Position numbers and translations under genes: made by a program
Shown: positions 2,791 through 42,071 of the stretch, one piece after another
Layout of the letters: every line of letters begins with the position of its first letter
How positions within the stretch are numbered: the stretch's first letter is position 1
Notes under the pieces: generated by a model
The model's database searches: none
Told to the model about the DNA's origin: nothing
Seen by the model: only the letters and a program-made list of their open reading frames with translations
Assembly: GCA_016704525.1 (NCBI GenBank)
Contig: JADIZX010000009.1
Span: 1-42,624, forward strand
Origin: Myxococcales bacterium
Lineage (GTDB): Bacteria > Myxococcota_A > Polyangia > Polyangiales > Polyangiaceae
Direction: 5' to 3'
Length of the DNA: 42,624 bases

Positions 2791-3150
2791 ATGAAACAGA
2801 TCCTATCTATTATGTTCGTCGGCATGTTGGTGGCCTGCGGCGGCGTGGCGATCGAGTCCGCGTCCGACTCGGGGGCGGCCGACTCGGCCCCCACGAGCGA
2901 CGCTTCGGCTGCGCGCGACTCGGCCTCCGACGCGCGGGGCCCAAAGGACGCGGCGATCGAGACCGACGACGCAGGCTGCCCGGTCGACTTCGCCGCGGCC
3001 GCGGGCACGCCGTGCAGCCCGCCGGGGCGCGGCTGCGGGACCTGCACCGATCCTTGCCAATTCTGCCGCGTGCTCCGCTGTCAGCTCGGCAAGTGGGAGA
3101 ACCTCGAGGTGTTCCCGCTCCCCTGCGACGCGAGCGCCGAGGGCGGCTGA
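2791..3150 (+). CDS. small cysteine-rich lipoprotein (hypothetical)
   Basis: Signal and lipobox: MKQILSIMFVGMLVAC. Ser/Asp/Ala-rich linker, then 10 Cys in the last 60 aa. Transcribed divergently from the 1923-2303 gene. Confidence 0.55.
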   Translation: MKQILSIMFVGMLVACGGVAIESASDSGAADSAPTSDASAARDSASDARGPKDAAIETDDAGCPVDFAAAAGTPCSPPGRGCGTCTDPCQFCRVLRCQLGKWENLEVFPLPCDASAEGG

Positions 3151-3345
3151 GGGGGCGCGTCGGCAGAGCCAGGGGTCGGCCGCGTCGCTCACGGGCGGGC
3201 CCTCACCCCTCGCGGGCCCTCACCCCTCGCGGGCCCTCACCCCTCGCGGGCCCTCACCCCTCGCGGGCCCTCACCCCTCGCGAAACGGCACGAGCCCCAC
3301 GCGCCCCTCTCCCACGAGGGGAGAGACGCGTCCGCGACCGCGATC
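3150..3345. repeat. partial copies of the MITE-like element family, joined by five tandem 18-bp repeats (gggccctcacccctcgcg, 3199-3289)
   Basis: A right end (agtcggccgcg.cgctcacgggcgg) is joined to five reiterations of the terminal-repeat motif. This is followed by a left end and the first hairpin (cccctctcccacgaggggagag). The same motifs occur at 9215-9395 and 11455-12425. Confidence 0.7.
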
Positions 3346-4540: not shown

Positions 4541-5849
<1,309 letters not shown>

Positions 5850-5854
<5 letters not shown>

Positions 5855-7376
5855 TCTCGGCGGCGCGGAGGCGGGCGAGCATGACCGCGGCGGGCTCGTC
5901 GGTGGGGTCCTGGGGGACGAGCTCGCCGCGGAAGGCCTTGGCGAGGAGGGGAGCCCTTCGAGGCTCCGGCGAGGGCCTCGTAGAGTTCGGCGCTCGTCAA
6001 CTCCTGTACCGGGATTGCCGCGAGGGCACGCCGCCTCAGTCGGTCGCGGAGGACGGTCTGTTCACCGGCCGGCGTGAGCGGCATGGGGAAGCGCCCGCAT
6101 GGCTCCGATGTTGACATGTGGTGCTGCGGACAACCACACTTGAGCATCTAGGAACCGCCGCGCTCGCCCATGCGATGCCCTAGTTGAACGCCATCACATG
6201 CGGATCGACGAACGACACGACCTGGTGGGCGACGCGCAAGGATCGCGCGCAGATAACGGGGGGGGGGCCGGGGGGGGGGGGGCGGTCGGCTAACGATCGG
6301 GGATGGCACATGCCGTGCCGAGGCGCTCGCCTCCGCGAACGACGAGATGTCCCGGGGGCCAGGCGGACTTCGCCAATTCCGCATGGACGTCGGGCGGATG
6401 CAGCGAAGCCCAGAAGGACTCGTAGCGATTCGCCCGGACGGTTCTGGACCGAAGAACGGGAACGCCCTCCGCCACGTAGCCGGGCTCCATCGGGCAGACG
6501 TGCCCGACAGTGATGTCCGGTGAGCGAAGGTCCTCAGCCGATGCCCAACACCACCCCTCCGGCAACTCCGGCAACCCCGTCGCATCGACCGGCTCGGGCT
6601 CCTTGTACTTCCCCTTCCACGCGTCATCCCGCGGGGCCTTCCCCTTGGCGGTCATCTTGGCGAGCTCGGCCTCTTCCCACTTCTTCCGGCGCTCCACGCG
6701 GATGCGCTTCAAGAGCTCGCTCGCGGGCTCCACGTCTCTGTTCTTCGCGCGCCAGTCCTTCGTGAGGTCCCCGCGAAAGGCCGCCGCGAGGATCGACTGG
6801 CGGAGCTTCTCGAGCAGCGGCGGCACGGCGTCGAGCGCCGCGCGGGCGCGACGGGAGCGGGCTTGGAGGGATTCGAGCTTGGCGACGATGCGGCGTTGTT
6901 CGTTGAGGGGGGGACCGGCAAGTCCATTTCCGCAAAGCGCCCGCCCCGAGGTGGCGCGATGTTCGTCGTAATCTGCGCCAACGGAACGAACGCGCCGCTC
7001 TTCAACCAGTTTCGGAATACGCCGAGCGCAAAGGTGGGCTCGACCATCGGGGAGGCCTGAAAGCGGACCAGCGAATTGCTGAAGCAGGCCCCTGGCAGCT
7101 CACCGCGAGACATCGCCGGGCGACCCACCTCTTCGCGTCTGTCCCTCGTTCAGAAGGATGTCCCCCGGGCTGCGCAAGTAGCGCCCACTCCACGCGGCTC
7201 GAAGTGCATCTGCATGACGTCGCTGATGCCGATGCGATCGTTACGTTCGCGACTCGCAGGTACGGGAGCATATTCGGCCCCCGGTGCACGTCGGGAGAGC
7301 GCTGGCGGCCAAGCTGGACCTTGCCCGCCTCGCGAACTTTGACTTGGCACCATCCGCTCGGAAGCTCCTTCGTCAC
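5850..7376 (-). pseudogene. hsdS: Type I restriction-modification specificity subunit HsdS, disrupted by at least 3-4 frameshifts
   Basis: The start overlaps the hsdM stop (ATGA at 7373-7376). TRD1 begins MTKELPSGWCQVKVREAGKVQ. The central conserved repeat (LNEQRRIVAKLESL...PPLLEKLRQSILAAAFRGDL...EPASELLKRIRVER) lies in another frame. TRD2 begins LPELPEGWCWASAEDL. The C-terminal conserved repeat (LLAKAFRGELVPQDPTDEPAAVMLARLRAAE, 5870-5960) is in a third frame. The frame breaks coincide with G7 (6907-6913) and G10CCG14 (6263-6290) tracts. Confidence 0.75.
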
Positions 7377-8809
7377 GCCCCCAGCTCCTCTTGAAGCGCC
7401 GCCATCTCCTCCAGCGCCACCTGCAGCTGCGCAACAATCTCCGCGGCGATCTCCTCCGGCTCCGGGAGATCCGCGTGGTCGGTCACGCTCTCATCCCGCA
7501 GCCACGAGATATCCAGGTTCTCCCCCCGCTTCGCGATCTCCTCCCGCGTGAACTTCCGGAACCGCCCCGTCTCGCCCTGATCCTTCCGCTTGCTCTTCCC
7601 CAGCGGATCCGCCCCGTAGGCCTTCTCGAACTCCGCGAAGTGCGCGCGCGTGAACGGCGTGCGCTTGCCGAACGAGGGCATGTTGGTGCGCAGGTCGTAG
7701 AACCACACGGCCTTGGTGTTGCCCTTGTCCTGCTTCTTCTCCCCCCGCGTGAAGAAGAGCACGTTGGTCTTCACGCCCTGCGCGTAGAAGATGCCCGTGG
7801 GCAGTCGCAGGATGGTGTGCAAGTCGCACTTGTCCATCAGGTCAGCGCGCACCTGCTTGCCCACGCCCTCCTCGAAGAGCACGTTGTCCGGGAGCACCAC
7901 CGCCGCGCGCCCGCCGGGCACGAGGCCTCGGTAGATGTGCTGGAGGAACACGAGTTGCTTGTTGCTCGTGGGGTACGTGAGGTCGTCGCGCGTGGGGGCG
8001 CCGCCGCCCTTCTTGGTGCCGAAGGGGGGATTCGTGAGGATCACGTTCGCCTTCGGCAGGTTGGCGCCCGAGGGGCCGAGCGTGTCGCCGAGCACGAGGT
8101 CGCCCTCGATGTCGTGGAGCATGGCGTTCATGAGCGCCAGGCGCTGCACGTCGGCCACGAGCTCCATCCCCTGGAAGGCCTCGCGTCGCTGGAAGTTCTG
8201 CTTGGCCACGGGCAAGTCGTGGAGATCGTCGGTGTTCGCCTTCACGTACCTGTCGGCGTTGATGAGGAATCCCCCGGTGCCGATCGCGGGATCTTGGATG
8301 ATTTCGCCCGGCTGGGGCTTCACGAGGGCGACCATGCTCTCGATGAGCGCGCGCGGCGTGAAGTATTGCCCCGCGCCGCTCTTGGTCTCCTCCGCGTTCT
8401 TCTCGAGCAGGCCCTCGTAGAGGTCCCCGAGCCCCTCGGACTTGGCGCTGTACCAGTCGAGCGCGTCGATCGCCTCGACCACCGTGCGCAGGTTCCGCGG
8501 CTGCCGGAACGAGGTGCCCGCGTTGGCGAAGATCGCCTGCACGCGCCCCGAGCCTTTGCCGCCGAGATCGATGAGGAGCTTCTTGTAGAAGTCGAGCAGC
8601 TCCACGCCCTCTTTGTTGACGAGATCGCCCCAGCGATAGCCCTTGGGGAGCTGGTCCTCGGTGCCTGTCTCCTTGGTCATCTTGAGGAAGAGGAGATAGG
8701 TGAGCTCGGTCACGTACTGGAGATACGTGATGCCGTCGTCACGGAGGACGTGGCAGAGGTTCCAGAGCTTCTGGACGATGTCGTTCGTGGTCGGCGCGGC
8801 GGGTGGCAT
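7373..8809 (-). CDS. hsdM: Type I restriction-modification DNA methyltransferase subunit HsdM (N6-adenine)
   Basis: HsdM N-terminal domain (NDIVQKLWNLCHVLRDDGITYLQYVTELTYLLFLK). SAM-binding motif (DPAIGTGGFL). Catalytic NPPF (VILTNPPFG). Internal ATG at 8809 chosen; the 5' extension of the ORF looks Arg-rich and non-coding. Confidence 0.9.
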   Translation of the reverse strand: MPPAAPTTNDIVQKLWNLCHVLRDDGITYLQYVTELTYLLFLKMTKETGTEDQLPKGYRWGDLVNKEGVELLDFYKKLLIDLGGKGSGRVQAIFANAGTSFRQPRNLRTVVEAIDALDWYSAKSEGLGDLYEGLLEKNAEETKSGAGQYFTPRALIESMVALVKPQPGEIIQDPAIGTGGFLINADRYVKANTDDLHDLPVAKQNFQRREAFQGMELVADVQRLALMNAMLHDIEGDLVLGDTLGPSGANLPKANVILTNPPFGTKKGGGAPTRDDLTYPTSNKQLVFLQHIYRGLVPGGRAAVVLPDNVLFEEGVGKQVRADLMDKCDLHTILRLPTGIFYAQGVKTNVLFFTRGEKKQDKGNTKAVWFYDLRTNMPSFGKRTPFTRAHFAEFEKAYGADPLGKSKRKDQGETGRFRKFTREEIAKRGENLDISWLRDESVTDHADLPEPEEIAAEIVAQLQVALEEMAALQEELGA

Positions 8810-9214: not shown

Positions 9215-9395
9215 TGAGCGCCCGCGACGCTCGCGGCCCTCACCCCCTCGCGCAGCGGCACGAGACCCACGTGCCCCTCTCCCACAAGGGGAGAGGGGCC
9301 CTTTCCGGAGCAGCTCGTGTGGCCCCTCTCCCCTGGTGGGAGAGGGGCACAAGTCGCCCGCGCCGCTCACGGGCGGGGTGAGGGCTCGCGGGCGT
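9215..9395. repeat. single copy of the MITE-like palindromic element: terminal inverted repeats gggccctcaccccctcgcg / cgcgggcggggtgagggc with two internal hairpins
   Basis: cccctctcccacaaggggagagggg and cccctctcccctggtgggagagggg are perfect hairpins. The flanking ends are inverted complements of each other. Homologous to the units at 11455-12425. Confidence 0.75.
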
Positions 9396-9531
9396 GGTGG
9401 GTGGGTCGCCCTTGTCTTCCGGGCTCGACGCTGAGCTGACGGCCCTTGGCGGCGGCGAACACCGGGCGCCCCGCGCGCCCAGATCGCTCGAGCGCACGGC
9501 AGGTCGGAGCAGGACGTGCTATTTTTCGAGA

Positions 9532-9777
9532 ATGGACAACGGGCCCGAGGCCCGCGCCGCGCGGCGCCGGGCGACCTGGAACTGGGAATGCCGAGTCGCG
9601 AAGACCTTCGCGGAGCACGAGCAGGACGGCCTCGATTTTTGGGCGGATGCGCCAAGCTCGGCGAAGCTCGACGCCATGTGGGACCTCATCGTCGAGGCTT
9701 GGTTGCTCGGAGGAAAGCGTGGACCTGCACCCCGATTTCAGGGATCTGTTGTCGCAATTCGCCGCTTCGAGCGTTGA
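9532..9777 (+). CDS. small hypothetical protein (82 aa), 5' partner of the nucleotidyltransferase gene
   Basis: ATG at 9532 follows an unusually AT-rich stretch (ctatttttcgagaATG). MDNGPEARAARRRATWNWECRVAKTFAEHEQDGLDFWADAPSSAKLDAMWDLIVEAWLLGG... It overlaps the next gene's start by 59 nt. The start is uncertain, since the ORF is open from 9394. Confidence 0.35.
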   Translation: MDNGPEARAARRRATWNWECRVAKTFAEHEQDGLDFWADAPSSAKLDAMWDLIVEAWLLGGKRGPAPRFQGSVVAIRRFER

Positions 9778-10141
9778 CTACTTGATGATCGGTGGCTGGG
9801 CGGTGAGCTTCCACAGCGAGCCGCGCTATACTAAAGATCTCGATCTGCTCTTGGTCGGGAGTGACGACAATCTCGCGAGAGCGGCGGAGGCCCTCGGCGC
9901 CTTCGGGGCGCCACGTTCGGTCATCGACCTGCTGCTCGCGCTCGGGCCGGAGGAGTTCAGCTCACTCGTCGCCGTCGCAGGCCAGACGCTCGAACGCGTC
10001 CCCGCGGCTCACGCGAGTCCATCGAGGATCCCTCGCGACCTCCGCAAGCGCCGCGCGGTCCTCGTCGCCAAGCGCGGGCCCCTCCTCCGCGGACGCGAAC
10101 GCGAGGGAGACGGCCTTCTTTGCGGTGGGAGCCATGACTGA
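9719..10141 (+). CDS. minimal nucleotidyltransferase-fold (MNT/AbiEii-like) protein
   Basis: GTG at 9719 with SD ggagga 4-5 nt upstream. The motif YLMIGGWAVSFHSEPRYTKDLDLLLVG matches the GG-x(9-13)-D-h-D-h signature of Pol-beta-superfamily minimal NTases. Preceded by FRDLLSQFAASSVDY. 140 aa. Confidence 0.55.
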   Translation: MDLHPDFRDLLSQFAASSVDYLMIGGWAVSFHSEPRYTKDLDLLLVGSDDNLARAAEALGAFGAPRSVIDLLLALGPEEFSSLVAVAGQTLERVPAAHASPSRIPRDLRKRRAVLVAKRGPLLRGREREGDGLLCGGSHD

Positions 10142-10294
10142 GGAGTAGCGCGTCAGGGCGCGCCCGTCACCCACGCCCCGCGACACGTCCGAGAGGCAGC
10201 TCTGACGCCGTCGGTGAGCTGCGTGCCGCGGAGGCGCGCCCGTCACGGACCGCTCGGGTTGCTCGGTCACGGCGCCGGAGGTATCGTGCTCCGC

Positions 10295-11398
10295 ATGAGC
10301 GCGGGGTCTCCGTTGGGGTGTGCGCTACGCGAGCAGCGTGACGCCCTCGGCTGTTCAGCCGAGCGACTCGCCGCGCTCTCCGAGCTGCCCGTCGACAGAG
10401 TGCTCGCCCTCGAGCAAGGCGCGCAGGCGACGACCCGTGAAATCGCGAAGCTGGCGTCAGCCCTCGCCGTGGATCCCGCCGCGCTGTGGCGAGGCGAGGT
10501 CAGCCTGCCTCGAACGACCGCGCGATTCCGTGCGCCGAGCGGCGTCGCGTCCCTCGCGGAGGGCGACGCGCGGCTGCTCGCGCGGGCCGCAGAGGCGGGG
10601 CGCGTCCTCGCGCATCTGCGCTCGCTGCGCGGCGAGGAGGCGGCGTCCGTCGTGGCCCGGAGGAGGGTGTCCGGCGTCGCCGGGTGGCCCGAGCCCTGGG
10701 ACCAGGGCTACCGGCTTGGCGCGAGGCTGCGAGCCGACCTCGGGCCCGGCAAGGCGCCAATTCCTTCGGTGCAGCGCCTTCTCGAGGAGCACGGCGTGCA
10801 CGTCGCCTGGAGCGCGTTCGAGAGCGGCGACGTGATCGCGGCCAGTCTCTACGAGCCCGGCGCGGCGCCCGTCATCCTGCTCAATACGAGGTCGCCGAGG
10901 GCGAGGGCGAGGCTCTCACGCCGAGCTGTCCTGGCTCATGAGCTCTGCCATCTCGTGGTCGACGGCGGCGAGACGGACCTGCTCACGCTCGTCTCCCGCG
11001 GCGTCGACGCGACCGAGGTCGAGCAACGGGCGAACGGCTTTGCCCCTAGCTTCATCGTGCCCGGAGGGTGGATATCGCCCCACACCACCGACGTCCGACA
11101 GCTCGCTCTCGACGTCGCCACGGAGTGGGGGCTGAGCTTCGAGGGCGCTCTCTGGCACTTGAAGAATGCGCAGCACATCGGGGCGAGGGATGTCGAAGAG
11201 GAGCTGCGGCGGGAGGCCGTCGTCATTCCAGAGGGTGCGTTCGAGGGCGACATCGAGCGCCGAGAGCCGGCGCATCTCCGTCTGGACGTGACGATCGGTC
11301 CCCTCGCATACGGGGCGCTCTCCGACGTGACACTCGGCGCCTTCGAGGCCGACATGATCTCCCGAGGTCGCGCCGTCGAGATCCTCGCGCTCGCATGA
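10295..11398 (+). CDS. XRE-family HTH fused to an ImmA/IrrE-family zinc metallopeptidase (COG2856/DUF955-type)
   Basis: N-terminal HTH (LREQRDALGCSAERLAALSELPVDRVLALEQG). HEXXH zinc motif (VLAHELCHLVVDG). Internal ATG at 10295 chosen; the ORF is open from 10214. Confidence 0.7.
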   Translation: MSAGSPLGCALREQRDALGCSAERLAALSELPVDRVLALEQGAQATTREIAKLASALAVDPAALWRGEVSLPRTTARFRAPSGVASLAEGDARLLARAAEAGRVLAHLRSLRGEEAASVVARRRVSGVAGWPEPWDQGYRLGARLRADLGPGKAPIPSVQRLLEEHGVHVAWSAFESGDVIAASLYEPGAAPVILLNTRSPRARARLSRRAVLAHELCHLVVDGGETDLLTLVSRGVDATEVEQRANGFAPSFIVPGGWISPHTTDVRQLALDVATEWGLSFEGALWHLKNAQHIGARDVEEELRREAVVIPEGAFEGDIERREPAHLRLDVTIGPLAYGALSDVTLGAFEADMISRGRAVEILALA

Positions 11399-11454
11399 CG
11401 TGGCGTGAGCCCCGAAGGGGCGAGCGCAGGTCGATGGCGAGCCCGAGCCGTAGG

Positions 11455-12425
11455 CACGCGGGCCCTCACCCCCTCGCGAATCGGCACGAGCCCCACGTGC
11501 CCCTCTCCCACAAGGGGAGAGGGGCCCCTTTCCCGAGCAACTCGTGTGGCCCCTCTCCCCTGGTGGGAGAGGGGCACGAGTCGGCCGCGACGCTCGCGGG
11601 CGGGGTGAGGGCTCACGGGCGGGGTGAGGGCTCACGGGCGGGCAGAGGGCTCGCGCGCGGGCAGAGGGCTCGCGGGGCGGCTCACGTCGGGCGCGACTCT
11701 CGCGGGCCCTCACCCCCTCGCGAATCGGCACGAGCCCCACGTGCCCCTCTCCCACAAGGGGAGAGGGGCCCCTTTCCCGAGCAACTCGTGTGGCCCCTCT
11801 CCCCTGGTGGGAGAGGGGCACGAGTCGGCCGCGACGCTCGCGGGCGGGGTGAGGGCTCGCGGGCGGGGGTGAGGGCTCGCGGGCGGGCAGAAGGCTCGCG
11901 GGCGGGCAGAGGGCTCGCGGGGCGGCTCACGTCGGGCGCGACTCTCGCGGGCCCTCACCCCCCCTCGCGAATCGGCACGAGCCCCGTGCCCCTCTCCCAC
12001 AAGGGGAGGGGCCCCTTTCCCGAGCAACTCGTGTGGCCCCTCTCCCCTGGTGGGAGAGGGGCACGAGTCGGCCGCGACGCTCGCGGGCGGGGTGAGGGCT
12101 CGCGGGCGGGGTGAGGGCTCGCGGGCGGGCAGAAGGCTCGCGCGCGGGCAGAGGGCTCGCGGGGCGGCTCACGTCGGGCGCGACTCTCGCGGGCCCTCAC
12201 CCCCTCGCGAATCGGCACGAGCCCCACGTGCCCCTCTCCCACAAGGGGAGAGGGCCCCTTTCCCGAGCAACTCGCGTGGCCCCTCTCCCCTGGTGGGAGA
12301 GGGGCACGAGTCGGCCGCGACGCTCGCGGGCGGGGTGAGGGCTCGCGGCCGGGGTGAGGGCTCGCGGCCGGCTTGAGGGCTCACGGGCGGCGTGAAGGCT
12401 CACGGGCGGGGTGAGGGCTCACGGC
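11455..12425. repeat. array of four tandem units (period about 243 bp) of the MITE-like palindromic element
   Basis: Units begin at about 11461, 11704, 11950 and 12190. Each has the left TIR, hairpin 1 (cccctctcccacaaggggagagggg), hairpin 2 (cccctctcccctggtgggagagggg), the right TIR, and variable gggcgggcagagggctcgcg sub-repeats. Units are contiguous with no unique spacers. Confidence 0.85.
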
Positions 12426-12759
12426 CGGCCAGCCACTCCCGAAAGCGCTCGAGCACCGCTTCCACGTCTTCCTCCACGTCGGCGGCCGTGACTCGCCAAA
12501 CACGCAGCCCGGAGGCCTCGAGAGCGCTCTGTCGGTCACGGTCGGCCTCGACCCGATCGTCGTGGATGGGCCCGTCGACCTCGACCACGACTCGGAGCTC
12601 GGAGCAGTAGAAGTCGACGACGAACCTGCCCATCGGCTGCTGCCTCCTCCACTTCGTCCCGGCGAACCGCCCGAGTCGCAGCGCCTCCCAGAGGACCGTC
12701 TCCGATCGCGTCTGAGTCCTCCGCAGCCCCCGGGCTCGCTCCGTCATTCTCCGCGCCAT
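12400..12759 (-). CDS. DUF559 (Vsr-like) endonuclease-domain protein
   Basis: TQTRSETVLWEALRLGRFAGTKWRRQQPMGRFVVDFYCSELRVVVEVDGPIHD...SGLRVWRV matches the DUF559/very-short-patch-repair-like fold. It lies 28 bp downstream of hsdR on the same strand. Its last about 8 codons run into the repeat array, so the true stop is uncertain. Confidence 0.7.
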   Translation of the reverse strand: MARRMTERARGLRRTQTRSETVLWEALRLGRFAGTKWRRQQPMGRFVVDFYCSELRVVVEVDGPIHDDRVEADRDRQSALEASGLRVWRVTAADVEEDVEAVLERFREWLAGREPSPRP

Positions 12760-16553: not shown

Positions 16554-17624
16554 TCACCCCGACAGGACATCCTCCAGCGTCGCGGCGGTGAGCACCCGCT
16601 CCGCCCAGGTGTCGAGCGTGGCAGCGTCCGCGGCGTCGAGTCGCGCGTTCGCACCCTCGGGGAGCGCACCGAACCGGAGAGCGAGCTGCTTGCGCAACAT
16701 GACGCGTCGACCTTGGACCTCTCCGACGATGATTCCTCGTGCCTCTCCCTTTTGCATCAACTCTTCGCCTGCGGTCATGAGCGTCTCCTTCAAGCGTTCG
16801 TCCGGGAGCGCCCCACGAAGCTGTTCCAGTACGATCCGCGACTCCGCGGGGTGGACCATCATCACATAGCGCAGGACGGTGTCCAGCGCCGCCCTCCCGT
16901 GTGGCGCCATCATGATCTCGAGCGCCACGTCCGCCCACGCGCCCAGATGGCGCACGAGCTCCTCAGGGTCGCGCGCGCGGCGGAAGCAATAGAGCACCAG
17001 CCGGCCGAGCGCGGACATCGCGCGCGCGCGAAGCGCTTCGTCGGTCTCGGTGACGAGCTCGTCGAGCACGAAGCGATGGCGCAGCACGTGCGCGCCCGCG
17101 GCCCGGAGGGTCGCTTCGTCGAGATCGTACAGCTCCTCGAGCGAACGCGCGGCCGTCCAGCCAGCGTCGCCGTGGTGAAGGACGACAGGGACGAGCGCGG
17201 GGAGCACCGTCGCGCCGGGGTTCTCCTTCAGCCACGACTCCCAGATGCGAACGGCATAGACCACCAGCCGAAAGGGCATGAGCGGGTGCGGGGTGCTCTG
17301 ATGCTCGTAAAGGAGATAGAGACGGGCCTCGCGACCCGAGAGCGACACGCGGAACAGAAGATCGGTGTGGCGGCTCTTGAGCTCGGCGTCCACGAACGAG
17401 CCAGGGACGGCCTCGAGCGTGTCCCAGGAGAACCGCGCCGCGAGCCCCTTCGGGAGCGCCGTGCGGAGCGCTCCCTCGGCGTGCCGCGGGTCCGAGAACG
17501 TGGACTTGAAGAGGGCGTCGTGGGGGCTCGGGGGCACGTGCCCAAGATGGCAAAGTCGAGGCCAGCGCGAGCAGGCAGGAATCCTCGGGCGGCGTGGGGG
17601 CGCCGATTGTCCGGGACGGCTCAT
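16554..17624 (-). CDS. Rpn-family recombination-promoting nuclease / putative transposase (PD-(D/E)xK, YhgA-like)
   Basis: HDALFKSTFSDPRHAEGALRTALP...FVDAELKSRHTDLLFRVSLSGREARLYLLYEHQST...FRLVVYAVRIWESW is the hallmark N-terminal nuclease core of the Rpn/transposase_31 family, with a DUF4351-like C-terminus. The start is uncertain: ATG at 17624 leaves an atypical 34-aa leader, and a GTG near 17546 is possible. Confidence 0.7.
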   Translation of the reverse strand: MSRPGQSAPPRRPRIPACSRWPRLCHLGHVPPSPHDALFKSTFSDPRHAEGALRTALPKGLAARFSWDTLEAVPGSFVDAELKSRHTDLLFRVSLSGREARLYLLYEHQSTPHPLMPFRLVVYAVRIWESWLKENPGATVLPALVPVVLHHGDAGWTAARSLEELYDLDEATLRAAGAHVLRHRFVLDELVTETDEALRARAMSALGRLVLYCFRRARDPEELVRHLGAWADVALEIMMAPHGRAALDTVLRYVMMVHPAESRIVLEQLRGALPDERLKETLMTAGEELMQKGEARGIIVGEVQGRRVMLRKQLALRFGALPEGANARLDAADAATLDTWAERVLTAATLEDVLSG

Positions 17625-18208
17625 GGGGTGTCCTGGACGGCGCCCCATGCGCGGCCTCCCGGTCGAGGGAGGCGAGGTGATATCGTCAGCGCGTCAGAAG
17701 GGTCACGGACGACACGCCAGCGTCGATCCCAAGCTCGCGCGCCAGAGCGACCAGGCACGCGACGACTCGCCCACGGTTGACGCGCACATAGCGTGTGCCG
17801 TTGGACCTGGAGCGCGGAGCAGGGGCGCCGTCCATTCGCTTGCCCACGAATGCCGCGCGACGGCGCCCGATAAGAGGTGGGGGGGTTCCACCCGGACGGT
17901 TTCTTACGTCACGGTCTCTTGCAGGCGCTGACGCCGTGCAGCGCCGTGCAGGCCACCTGGCACGGCGGCGGGGGAGTGGCGCCCGGCGTCGCAATTCTGC
18001 CGTGGAGCACGACGTGAGCCCGCGTTGCCCCCCGCTCCGCTTGCTGGGCGCCCAGGAGACCCCGGCGCCCCGACACCCACAACCCACCGCCGCCCTGAAC
18101 GCCCGCCCCTCCCCACCGCCCACCACCACCCCTTTTCTTCCCCCGTCCCTTGCTCGCCGGCCCCCTTGAAGTAGGGTGACGTGGGCGAAATCGCTCGAAA
18201 GGCACCCC

Positions 18209-22968: not shown

Positions 22969-23053
22969 GGAGAGCTGACCGAGTGGCCGAAGGTGCCTGA
23001 TTCGAAATCAGGTGTAGGGAAACCTACCAAGGGTTCGAATCCCTTGCTCTCCG
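22969..23053 (+). tRNA. tRNA-Ser (anticodon CGA), class II with a long variable arm
   Basis: Manual fold: acceptor GGAGAGC/GCTCTCC, D-stem ACC/GGT, anticodon stem CCTGA/TCAGG, loop TTCGAAA (anticodon CGA), variable arm TAGG-GAAA-CCTA, T-stem AGGG/CCCT with TTCGAATC loop, discriminator G. The 3' CCA is not encoded (genomic CAA). Confidence 0.85.
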
Positions 23054-23117
23054 CAAGTTGCCACGACCCGAGGGGGGTTGGTCGAGCTCGTTGAGGCTCG
23101 ACCGCCGTGCCAGTTCC

Positions 23118-40717: not shown

Positions 40718-42071
40718 GTGTCCGACCCCGTGACCACTTCGCGTTCTGCCCGTGAATCCTTGGCTCGTGGCCTCGCCGCGCTCCAGGTCGACCCAAGCAC
40801 TCCGCCCGCCATCCTCGAGATAGCAGAGCCCATCGCGCTCGCCATGGGCTCGCTCCACAAAATCGAGAGCTCGCAAGGGGCAGCGCTCGTGCCCAACGCG
40901 GAGACCGCGCTCGGTCACGTGCGGGCCGCGCTGTCGCAGCTCCAGGCGCAGACCTCCGGCCACCCCTCGGTGCCCAACGCCATGGAGGCGGTCGCGGCGT
41001 CGCTCGGCCTCGTGCACCAGCTCTCGAAGATGGTGACCGGGCCGTCGGTCGCGCCGGCCGGCCGCGCCGGCCGCGCCCGTGCAAGTCGCCCCCGTCGCCC
41101 CCGTCGCCCCCGCCGCCCCCGCCGCCCCCACCGCCCCCGCCGCGGCAGCGGTCCCACGCCTCGGGACCCAGCCGCTCGCTCCGGCGATGGCCCCGCGGCC
41201 CGTGGCGGCCCCGCAGGCCCCGATGGCGCAAGCCCCGATGGCCCCGCAAGCCCCGATGGCCCCGCAAGCCCCGATGGCCCCGCAAGCCCCGATGGCCCCG
41301 CAAGCCCCGACGGCCCCGCAAGCCCCGGCGTTCGCTCACCAGCCCGTGGCTCACCAGCCCGCTCCCCAGCAGGCCCCGCAGTTCGCCCCCCCGCCCGTGG
41401 CTCACCAGCCCGCTCCCCAGCAGGCCCCGCTGCAGGCGCCGCCGCAAGCGTTCGCGCCCCAGCCCATGGCCCAGCAGCCCGCGCCTCCGCAGGCGTTCGC
41501 GCCCCAGCCCGTCGCGGCCCCCCAGTTCGCTCCCGCGCAGCAGCCCGCTCCGCAGTTTGCCGCGCCTCCGCAGCAGCAGCCCACGCTGGCGCAGACCGTG
41601 GCGCTCGGCCAGCCCCAGCCCCAGGGTATGCAGCACACGCTCCCGGTAGCCCCCCAGGCCGCGCCGGACCCGTTCGCGGCGCCCCGCGGCTCCGCTCCCG
41701 CGCCTGCGCCCGCCGCCGCCGGAGGCCCAGGCCGGCCGGTGCCGGTGCTGAACGCCGACCTCGGCGCCCACAGCCCCACGAACTTCTACAAGGGGCTCTC
41801 GGGCAACGACGTCGTCGATCACGGCGGCCTGTTCGTTGCAACCTACATGATCCCGAAGATCGGCAGCCCAGTGCGGCTGCACGTCTCGCTGCCCGGCGGG
41901 TATGAGTTCGACGCGGAGGCGATCGTGCGCTGGGCGCGGGACCAGGCCGGCAGCTCGGAGAGCGCGCTCCCCGGCTTCGGCGCGCAGTTCACGAACATCT
42001 CGCCGGAAGCGCGCCAGCTCATTTACCGCTACGTGCGCAACCGCGAGCCGCTCTTCCACGACGACCTGTAG
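40718..42071 (+). CDS. PilZ-domain protein with a novel N-terminal domain and a Pro/Ala/Gln-rich repetitive linker; apparent frameshift at about 41034-41075
   Basis: GTG at 40718 with SD aggaga 8 nt upstream. The N-domain (about 110 aa) is in frame 2. From about 41079 the sensible frame is frame 0 (APMAPQ x5 encoded by an 18-bp tandem repeat at 41218-41325). It ends in a PilZ domain (GLFVATYMIPKIGSPVRLHVSLPGGYEFDAEAIVRWARD...GFGAQFTNISPEARQLIYRYV). Frame 2 continues as Arg-rich nonsense. Confidence 0.6.

Follow-up and report, generated by a model that had tools for sequence, protein, structure and literature searches.

Within a 42,624-nucleotide stretch of a Myxococcales genome (GenBank assembly GCA_016704525.1, contig JADIZX010000009.1, positions 1 to 42,624; hereafter called the window), a type I restriction island contains an array of four head-to-tail repeat units of about 243 bp each (11457-12428), whose outer edge is fused to the coding end of a gene for a DUF559 protein. 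The order of genes at this locus is hsdM, a single copy of the same repeat element, an AbiEii-like open reading frame (ORF), an HTH-M78 gene, the array, DUF559, hsdR and a gene for an Rpn/YhgA-like nuclease. The type I methyltransferase gene hsdM occupies 7373-8809 (minus strand), and the two-gene cassette 9446-11398 (plus strand) comprises the weakly AbiEii-like ORF and the HTH-M78 (ImmA/RmrA-like) gene at 10286-11398. The DUF559 gene (PF04480, YcjD-like, predicted Vsr-fold endonuclease) lies at 12400-12759 (minus strand), 27 nt after hsdR, the type I restriction subunit gene (12787 to ~16260, minus strand; 1157 aa as called in the related strain L125). The array is thus found between the convergent 3' ends of the ImmA-like gene and of the hsdR-DUF559 operon, where an original prediction, made from the letters of the DNA only, had also placed it. 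Together with the array, the single copy of the element forms direct repeats that bracket the two-gene cassette.

Architecture of the repeat array

Tandem Repeats Finder reports a repeat at 11457-12371 with a period of 243, 3.8 copies, 96% matches and a score of 1719, and the array continues to 12428 via nested 19-bp sub-repeats, in agreement with the four tandem 243-bp copies and the local amplification that had been predicted. In unit 1 (11462-11705, plus strand, as are all units), a C-block and a linker precede hairpin 1; a 25-nt spacer separates it from hairpin 2, which is followed by a second linker and G-block 19-mers. Unit 2 (11706-11948) and unit 3 (11949-12191) are those in which the inter-hairpin spacer is exchanged in L125, with hairpin 1 of unit 3 being degenerate, while the tail of unit 4 (12192-12428) consists of 5.6 divergent 19-bp sub-repeats running into the coding end of DUF559. 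Hairpin 1, CCCCTCTCCC-ACAAG-GGGAGAGGGG, is located at 11500-11524, 11744-11768 and 12231-12255, with its degenerate version at ~11989-12011, and hairpin 2, CCCCTCTCCC-CTGGT-GGGAGAGGGG, at 11550-11574, 11794-11818, 12037-12061 and 12280-12304. Stems are 10 bp long and loops 5 nt (ACAAG and CTGGT), which corrects the hairpin dimensions given earlier. The two perfect 25-nt palindromes of that description hold for hairpin 2, perfect in 4/4 units, but not for hairpin 1, which carries a 2-nt deletion in unit 3 and one mismatch in unit 4.

The two hairpins have an identical stem, and the loop CTGGT is the reverse complement of the loop ACAAG bar one mismatch; therefore, the whole element is one imperfect palindrome, and the core of each unit is a ~160-170-nt imperfect palindrome made of two inverted halves. 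Each half contains in order a C- or G-rich block (GCCCTCACCCC / GGGGTGAGGGC), a 27-29-nt linker and the 10-bp hairpin CCCCTCTCCC-N5-GGGAGAGGGG, or in general form a third-strand block CCCTCACCC or GGGTGAGGG, a linker and a homopyrimidine/homopurine hairpin CCCTCTCCC-loop-GGGAGAGGG. The terminal inverted repeats proposed before are present, although the perfect core of these repeats amounts to just 11 nt (GCCCTCACCCC / GGGGTGAGGGC). Cores are joined by ~4.5 copies of the 19-bp sub-repeat GCTCGCGGGCGGG[GT/CA]GAGG (11592-11676, plus strand; also 11836-11921, 12079-12163 and 12322-12428), and these sub-repeats are reiterated G-rich third-strand blocks, with GGGGTGAGGG twice followed by GGGCAGAGGG twice. 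A search for CCCCTCTCCC-N5-GGGAGAGGGG with up to two mismatches gives 10 matches in the window (3304, 9274/9323 and the rest in the array) as compared to 0.00 expected from dinucleotide shuffles, and all copies of the element in the window share one orientation. In DNA folding, hairpin 2 with the linker mini-hairpin reaches -23.1 kcal/mol (z -3.8), the mini-hairpin being formed by the right linker and weakly by the left linker.

The array is a non-coding inverted-repeat element with two hairpins, as had been proposed. ORFs across it do not show the GC3 (codon-position GC) signature that genuine genes have in this genome of 70% GC, and a chimeric six-frame translation of one unit found 0 matches among 5.8 billion proteins, implying that ORFs over this unit either do not occur elsewhere or are not called as genes. 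At the gathering threshold, Rfam returned tRNA-Ser alone from the window, with no family for the element and no CRISPR repeat, and at E values up to 10 sub-threshold chance matches in the array and nothing more. Repetition of whole 243-bp units at 96% identity, along with the lack of an Rfam CRISPR hit at that threshold, is in line with the earlier statement that this is not a CRISPR array.

Two more copies were also announced by the original prediction and both exist, with limits slightly different from those given (9215-9395 and 3150-3345). The single complete doublet at 9220-9395 (plus strand) is situated upstream of hsdM, left of the two-gene cassette, and its parts define the limits of the element: GCCCTCACCCC and a linker of 27 nt, hairpin 1 and hairpin 2 with 25 nt of spacer between them, then a linker of 29 nt and GGGGTGAGGGC. 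The entire doublet folds into a single long hairpin (-147.5 kcal/mol and z -9.8 as RNA, -76.2 kcal/mol and z -7.1 as DNA), and it is conserved in strains L126 and L127. The partial, junction-like copy at 3175-3328 (plus strand) comprises the right-arm end, C-block repeats and the left arm through a degenerate hairpin 1, with a C-block micro-array of 5.2 x 17 bp at 3195-3282 instead of the 5 x 18 bp at 3199-3289 reported earlier. No DUF559 remnants were found beside either of these two non-array copies in the window.

Relationship to the BoxC/PIT/TMECO family

BoxC/PIT/TMECO repeats have been known since the 1990s, are highly conserved and are found in hundreds of genomes, and we know of no function, mechanism of spread or protein partner assigned to them. 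BoxC, the PIT element and TMECO designate the same sequence, 5'-CCCTCNCCC N3-6 GGGNGAGGG N3 GGGNGAGGG (Holder et al. 2015, PMC4666352). TMECO has 3610 occurrences in 262 proteobacterial genomes, forms a triplex in vitro, and is described as associated with local instability and without a link to mobile elements (PMC4666352). Holder et al. also report that TMECO is missing from Salmonella. In the window, the hairpin CCCTCNCCC-loop 3-6 nt-GGGNGAGGG has nine exact matches with a 5-nt loop (9275, 9324 and seven in the array), while the strict TMECO pattern, with the third block GGGNGAGGG exactly 3 nt past the hairpin, has 0 matches. The third block is present in the window element, and like BoxC/PIT/TMECO the element is intergenic and occurs as an inverted pair. 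Since the strict pattern is absent and 27-29 nt rather than 3 nt separate the hairpin from the third block, the element is a variant of BoxC/PIT/TMECO and not a strict member; it is new as a variant of a known, unexplained repeat family. The original prediction missed both these blocks and the fusion of the array to the 3' end of DUF559.

Palindromes of this kind have been considered as transcription terminators, and the array could be read as a bidirectional terminator, an insulator or an mRNA-stabilising structure between the ImmA-like gene and hsdR-DUF559, its repeats being kept for that function. The position between two convergent 3' ends and the extreme stability of the hairpins would fit, and the Enterobacter sp. 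638 genome paper, which describes the palindrome in duplicate or triplicate at 3' ends, presumes termination (PMC2869309). However, a terminator scan of 11400-12430 found no site with a T-tract, and the work cited in PMC4666352 reports neither promoter nor terminator activity of PIT/BoxC elements in E. coli. Moreover, the copy at 9220 is upstream of hsdM and not at a 3' end, and eight hairpins with ~18 sub-repeats go far beyond what termination needs. Maintenance of the array for such a function is improbable; the terminator role assigned to it originally finds no backing here, and any terminator or insulator effect would be secondary.

The wider distribution of the doublet was surveyed with two CCCTCTCCC-N5-GGGAGAGGG hairpins 17-42 nt apart, taking one genome per species and ~8 kb per locus, for a total of at least 120 loci. 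These belong to Proteobacteria, Chloroflexota, Cyanobacteria, Planctomycetota, Armatimonadota, Acidobacteriota and others, and the viral contigs gave 0 matches to the doublet pattern. Among the matches listed, the usual layout is CCCTCACCCC-n2-8-hairpin...hairpin-n2-8-GGGGTGAGGG (54 doublets), and a subclass with 18-40-nt linkers on both sides comprises 13 doublets, most of these linkers folding into mini-hairpins of differing sequence like the right-hand linker of the window element. Among the matches listed, few clusters exceed three hairpins, and a four-doublet array is unusual. BLAST of the element against the same loci matched the hairpin cores and nothing else, so that none of the loci listed holds a close relative of the 160-nt element.

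In 39% of the 126 doublets listed, the two loops are reverse complements of each other (at most one mismatch), as compared to 11% with shuffled partners. This property and the inverted-doublet organisation recall repetitive extragenic palindromic (REP) sequences and their REPIN doublets, which would be mobilised by a RAYT, an IS200/IS605-like tyrosine transposase. However, no RAYT, Y1 or HUH transposase is present among the window ORFs scanned, the sequence lacks the REP-type conserved head, and the gene that is flanked is DUF559, with another nuclease fold, and we regard mobilisation by a RAYT as scarcely credible.

Physical linkage of the array to DUF559

The window's DUF559 gene ends within the array: its last ~9 codons (...GREPSPRP) and the stop codon fall in the outermost sub-repeat and the C-block, so that repeat and gene are physically joined. 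The encoded protein matches Pfam PF04480 with an E value of 1.8e-31 and 108.7 bits (cut-off 20.6), is covered over its full length by the NCBIfam YcjD model and matches PDB 3hrl with an E value of 6e-15. The E-x-D-G-x-x-H core is kept, the alignment reading VVEVDGPIH, and on these profile and structure matches the protein is predicted to be a Vsr-fold, EDxHD-type endonuclease. The Vsr/DUF559 Pfam clan takes in the proven homing endonuclease I-Bth0305I. A vestige of the DUF559 3' end in the inter-unit junctions was considered and rejected, as the alignment score was driven by the 19-mers and the remainder was not significant.

Association of DUF559 genes with palindromes across bacteria

DUF559 genes are generally embedded in repeats of this kind, and the pairing is seen in at least six bacterial phyla. 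Among the surveyed loci, which were chosen by the palindrome alone, tblastn with the window's DUF559 protein revealed 9 DUF559 genes in 8 of the at least 120 loci, with all but one of these nine (8/9) within ~100 nt of a hairpin; their hosts are Enterobacter, several Alphaproteobacteria, one Dehalococcoidia and one cyanobacterium. In E. coli K-12, a degenerate hairpin is found at the stop codon of ycjD (b1289, annotated as DUF559), and TMECO #9 follows 167 nt downstream; the YcjD C-terminus (...RSPSP) is encoded by a C-block, as is that of the window protein.

A second sample was centred on DUF559 and drawn by tblastn from PLSDB (33 records, 16 examined, from plasmids and chromids). A flanking homopyrimidine/homopurine hairpin with a C-/G-rich block was recognized by eye in 16/16 loci, and a strict detector (perfect stem of at least 7 bp, 5' arm only C/T with at least 5 C, loop of 3-8 nt) was positive in 12/16 as compared to 0 in 106 kb of control DNA. 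Flank sequences are lineage-specific among these loci, with CCTCCCCC/GGGGGAGG in three Deinococcus species, CCCCC/GGGGG in Picosynechococcus, CCCCTCCC in a Sphingomonas and CCCTCTCCC in others. A 50-kb stretch of a Deinococcus plasmid contains exactly two copies of the hairpin, one on each side of DUF559, and this gene with its ~52-nt inverted ends constitutes a discrete 494-bp module between paaD and paaZ that is missing from the same operon in Deinococcus sp. QL22. On the chromid of Photobacterium sp. GJ3 (L148), ~11 tandem 148-bp doublets follow right after the DUF559 stop codon. A more distant, 56%-identical DUF559 homologue (L152, 2300-3200, on a 1.8-Mb contig) carries triplex-type hairpins on both sides, and an insertion sequence breaks each of them. 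Of the papers located that mention DUF559, ycjD, COG2852 or PF04480, none links them to BoxC/REP-type repeats, and no report in the searchable literature ties BoxC/PIT/TMECO to mobile elements.

Several additional features were observed at these loci. Between ycjD and TMECO #9 (L130, 1351040-1351406), there is a partial duplicate of the last ~40 nt of ycjD (ggagacggtgctggagaatattc...), and the units of the Photobacterium array start with the sequence that follows the DUF559 stop codon, which recalls this 3'-end duplicate. The insertion sequences breaking the two hairpins in L152 are two copies of one DDE_Tnp_1 element, which may target the palindromes. On pSymB of S. meliloti (L140), DUF559 is bracketed by two ~120-bp doublets that are mutually reverse-complementary including their spacers, in a layout resembling a composite transposon beside a copy of ISRm16.

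The terminal repeats of the element also raise the question of a classical miniature inverted-repeat transposable element (MITE), that is, an insertion sequence of the DDE-transposase kind that was reduced by deletion and is mobilised in trans, with a chance fourfold duplication. The perfect 11-nt terminal inverted repeat, beyond which similarity is weaker, the size of ~160-240 bp, the long hairpin fold and the presence at three loci in the window would all be expected of such an element, and the single copy has the short direct repeat TCGCG on both sides. However, TCGCG is also present on the inner side of the left end and in every sub-repeat and hence makes no convincing target-site duplication. 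No insertion sequence with matching ends was found, the sole nearby transposase-like gene being that of the Rpn/YhgA nuclease, and no empty site was found either. The ends themselves are BoxC third-strand blocks common to several phyla, an element-specific 30-mer is confined to this locus in the JGI metagenomes, and the only gene found with such ends is DUF559. With this balance, an origin as a MITE is quite unlikely.

Strain comparison and instability of the array

An exact match of the Ppk protein puts the window on or beside L125 (GCA_963852875.1, contig CAWKVH010000008.1). The two are 98.7-99.7% identical, with ~98.7% across the stretch spanning the array, and are thus independent versions whose differences concentrate in hsdS and in the array. 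L125 likewise contains four units, and its units 1 and 4 are identical to those of the window. In units 2 and 3, the inter-hairpin spacer is CATTTGTTTGGCGACT in L125 and CCCCTTTCCCGAGCAACT in the window, a gene-conversion-type block replacement, and homopolymer lengths also vary within units. In the JGI strain L127, homology to the window stops at 11404 within the left array junction (11399-11461), and the array begins 50 nt later in the window. Coming from the DUF559 side, the short-read contigs L128 and L129 break off within the array, and in L150, 94% identical to the window, an array follows DUF559 with other sub-repeat numbers and a 46-nt insert. Thus, the array is kept in place while strains differ within it, and the locus is fixed in position and fluid in structure. 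From this comparison of strains, the array appears to be a hotspot for gene conversion, sub-repeat expansion and indels in a type I restriction/defence island. The predicted use of the repeats as recombination substrate is strengthened by the spacer swap in units 2 and 3 between two strains and by a third strain with an extra gene after the ImmA-like gene.

This extra gene in L127 (1-564) is a 171-aa ORF without a Pfam hit, which overlaps the stop codon of the HTH-M78 gene (ATGA) and is missing from the window. The HTH-M78 protein matches RmrA of PADLOC with an E value of 1.4e-20; since RmrA is the antitoxin of RosmerTA, the 171-aa ORF lost from the window may be the toxin.

As L125 is less than 100% identical to the window and also has four units, the copy number is no obvious assembly artefact. 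Expansion or collapse of the repeat in a long-read metagenome-assembled genome would be conceivable from the origin of the window, which comes from such an assembly or is close to one, from its junk stretch at 4541-6542 and from the homopolymer-length differences within units. However, four units with matching outer units occur in each of two non-identical sequences, the window and GCA_963852875.1, and independent short-read contigs run from the DUF559 side into the array and end within it, as a genuine repeat would cause them to do. An artefactual array is hence very improbable.

Other features of the window

Among the neighbouring genes, the hsdS frame at 6615-7376 (minus strand) contains stop codons in the window and is an intact 253-aa gene in L125, with the differences between the two clustering at 6750-7250; this reflects either a variable specificity subunit or a sequencing error. 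The stretch 4541-6542 has ~95% G+C with long poly-C/poly-G runs, and its counterpart in L125 (12277-14246) is 1970 nt of ordinary 66% GC sequence, making it probably an assembly or base-calling artefact of the window version. A tRNA-Pro called by ARAGORN at 5320-5416 lies inside this stretch and was discarded as a false positive.

Directly upstream of hsdR, the Rpn/YhgA-like recombination-promoting nuclease (Transposase_31) is encoded at 16554-17648 (minus strand), and no link between it and the repeats was found. A tRNA-Ser(CGA) gene at 22969-23054, ~5 kb past the restriction/defence genes, could be an island boundary, and the ORFs scanned in the window included no integrase. At 41087-41327, 9-bp and 18-bp tandem repeats (GGCCCCGCAAGCCCCGAT x 6.9) within a high-GC3 ORF (41037-42071) probably encode a proline-rich repeat protein.

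Interpretation

Taken together, the array is composed of four tandem copies of a lineage-specific, expanded BoxC/PIT/TMECO-type repeat, probably a selfish repeat associated with DUF559 that has been locally amplified and acts as a recombination hotspot. DUF559 and its flanking triplex-motif palindromes would constitute a small selfish module, and gene-less doublets, including the copy at 9220, would be derivatives of this module in the way that REP sequences relate to RAYT genes. Slipped or unequal recombination, or break repair occurring again and again at a structure-prone repeat, could have produced the tandem array beside the gene. A more far-reaching proposal, which we advance tentatively and hold to be possible without being the likelier outcome, is that free-standing, YcjD-like DUF559 endonucleases are the missing protein partners of BoxC/PIT palindromes, with gene-less doublets being non-autonomous and tandem arrays, in the window and in Photobacterium alike, representing by-products of the repair of nuclease-induced breaks at the structured repeat.

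Several observations weigh against a selfish repeat driven by DUF559. In the survey, 112 of the at least 120 doublet loci have no DUF559 gene within the ~8 kb examined. Similarity among DUF559 proteins tracks host taxonomy and not the type of flank motif, which fits vertical inheritance and misfits a strictly sequence-specific pair of nuclease and target; co-variation of DUF559 protein clades with flank motif type was looked for and not seen. Two topologies occur, with the gene inside a doublet or between doublets, and no single element structure fits all loci. The element is present at three loci within 9.3 kb and at none in the other ~39 kb of this genome scanned, and the element-specific 30-mer matches in the JGI metagenomes only the same locus in related strains, which leaves dispersal of this sub-family unproven. 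The link between DUF559 and the repeats is positional only, to our knowledge no activity of a free-standing DUF559 protein on such repeats has been described, and the flanking hairpins could instead serve to regulate or insulate a nuclease gene that may be toxic.

The value of the DUF559-associated selfish repeat as an explanation lies in part in its consequences. Pairing across phyla with one small nuclease family makes the partner of these repeats directly testable, and E. coli offers the material at hand, with ycjD, 23 TMECO copies and standard genetics. At this locus, it explains a fast-changing repeat block in a defence island, where gene conversion and the loss of a neighbouring gene occur at the same place as the block. 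The part most worth following is the association of DUF559 with BoxC across phyla.

Comparison with known systems

With I-Bth0305I, an EDxHD/Vsr-like homing endonuclease, the window's DUF559 protein shares the Pfam clan and the E-x-D-G-x-x-H core, but it is free-standing, ~115 aa in size and without an intron or intein. MITEs of the Correia/RIME type are similarly small and intergenic with terminal inverted repeats and a long hairpin fold, and in S. meliloti two inverted doublets likewise bracket the DUF559 gene, RIME being a rhizobial type of repeat, whereas neither a convincing target-site duplication nor a DDE-transposase partner was found for the window element. REP/REPIN-RAYT systems resemble it in that short inverted-doublet palindromes far outnumber and flank one nuclease gene; here, however, the partner is a predicted Vsr-fold DUF559 protein instead of an HUH/Y1 transposase, and the palindromes have no sequence similarity to REPs.

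With BoxC/PIT/TMECO, the window element has in common three 9-mer blocks and their order, CCCTC(N)CCC, loop, GGG(N)GAGGG and GGG(T)GAGGG, as well as the intergenic position, the frequent inverted pairs and the local genomic instability. It differs in the placement of the third block 27-29 nt from the hairpin, in the multiplication of this block as 19-bp sub-repeats and in the arrangement of whole doublets head to tail in four copies. In the Photobacterium chromid, as in the window, the DUF559 stop codon is followed by tandem doublets of C-block, hairpin ... hairpin and G-block, but with a 148-bp unit, ~11 copies and the motif CCTCCCCCTT / GGGTGGGG.

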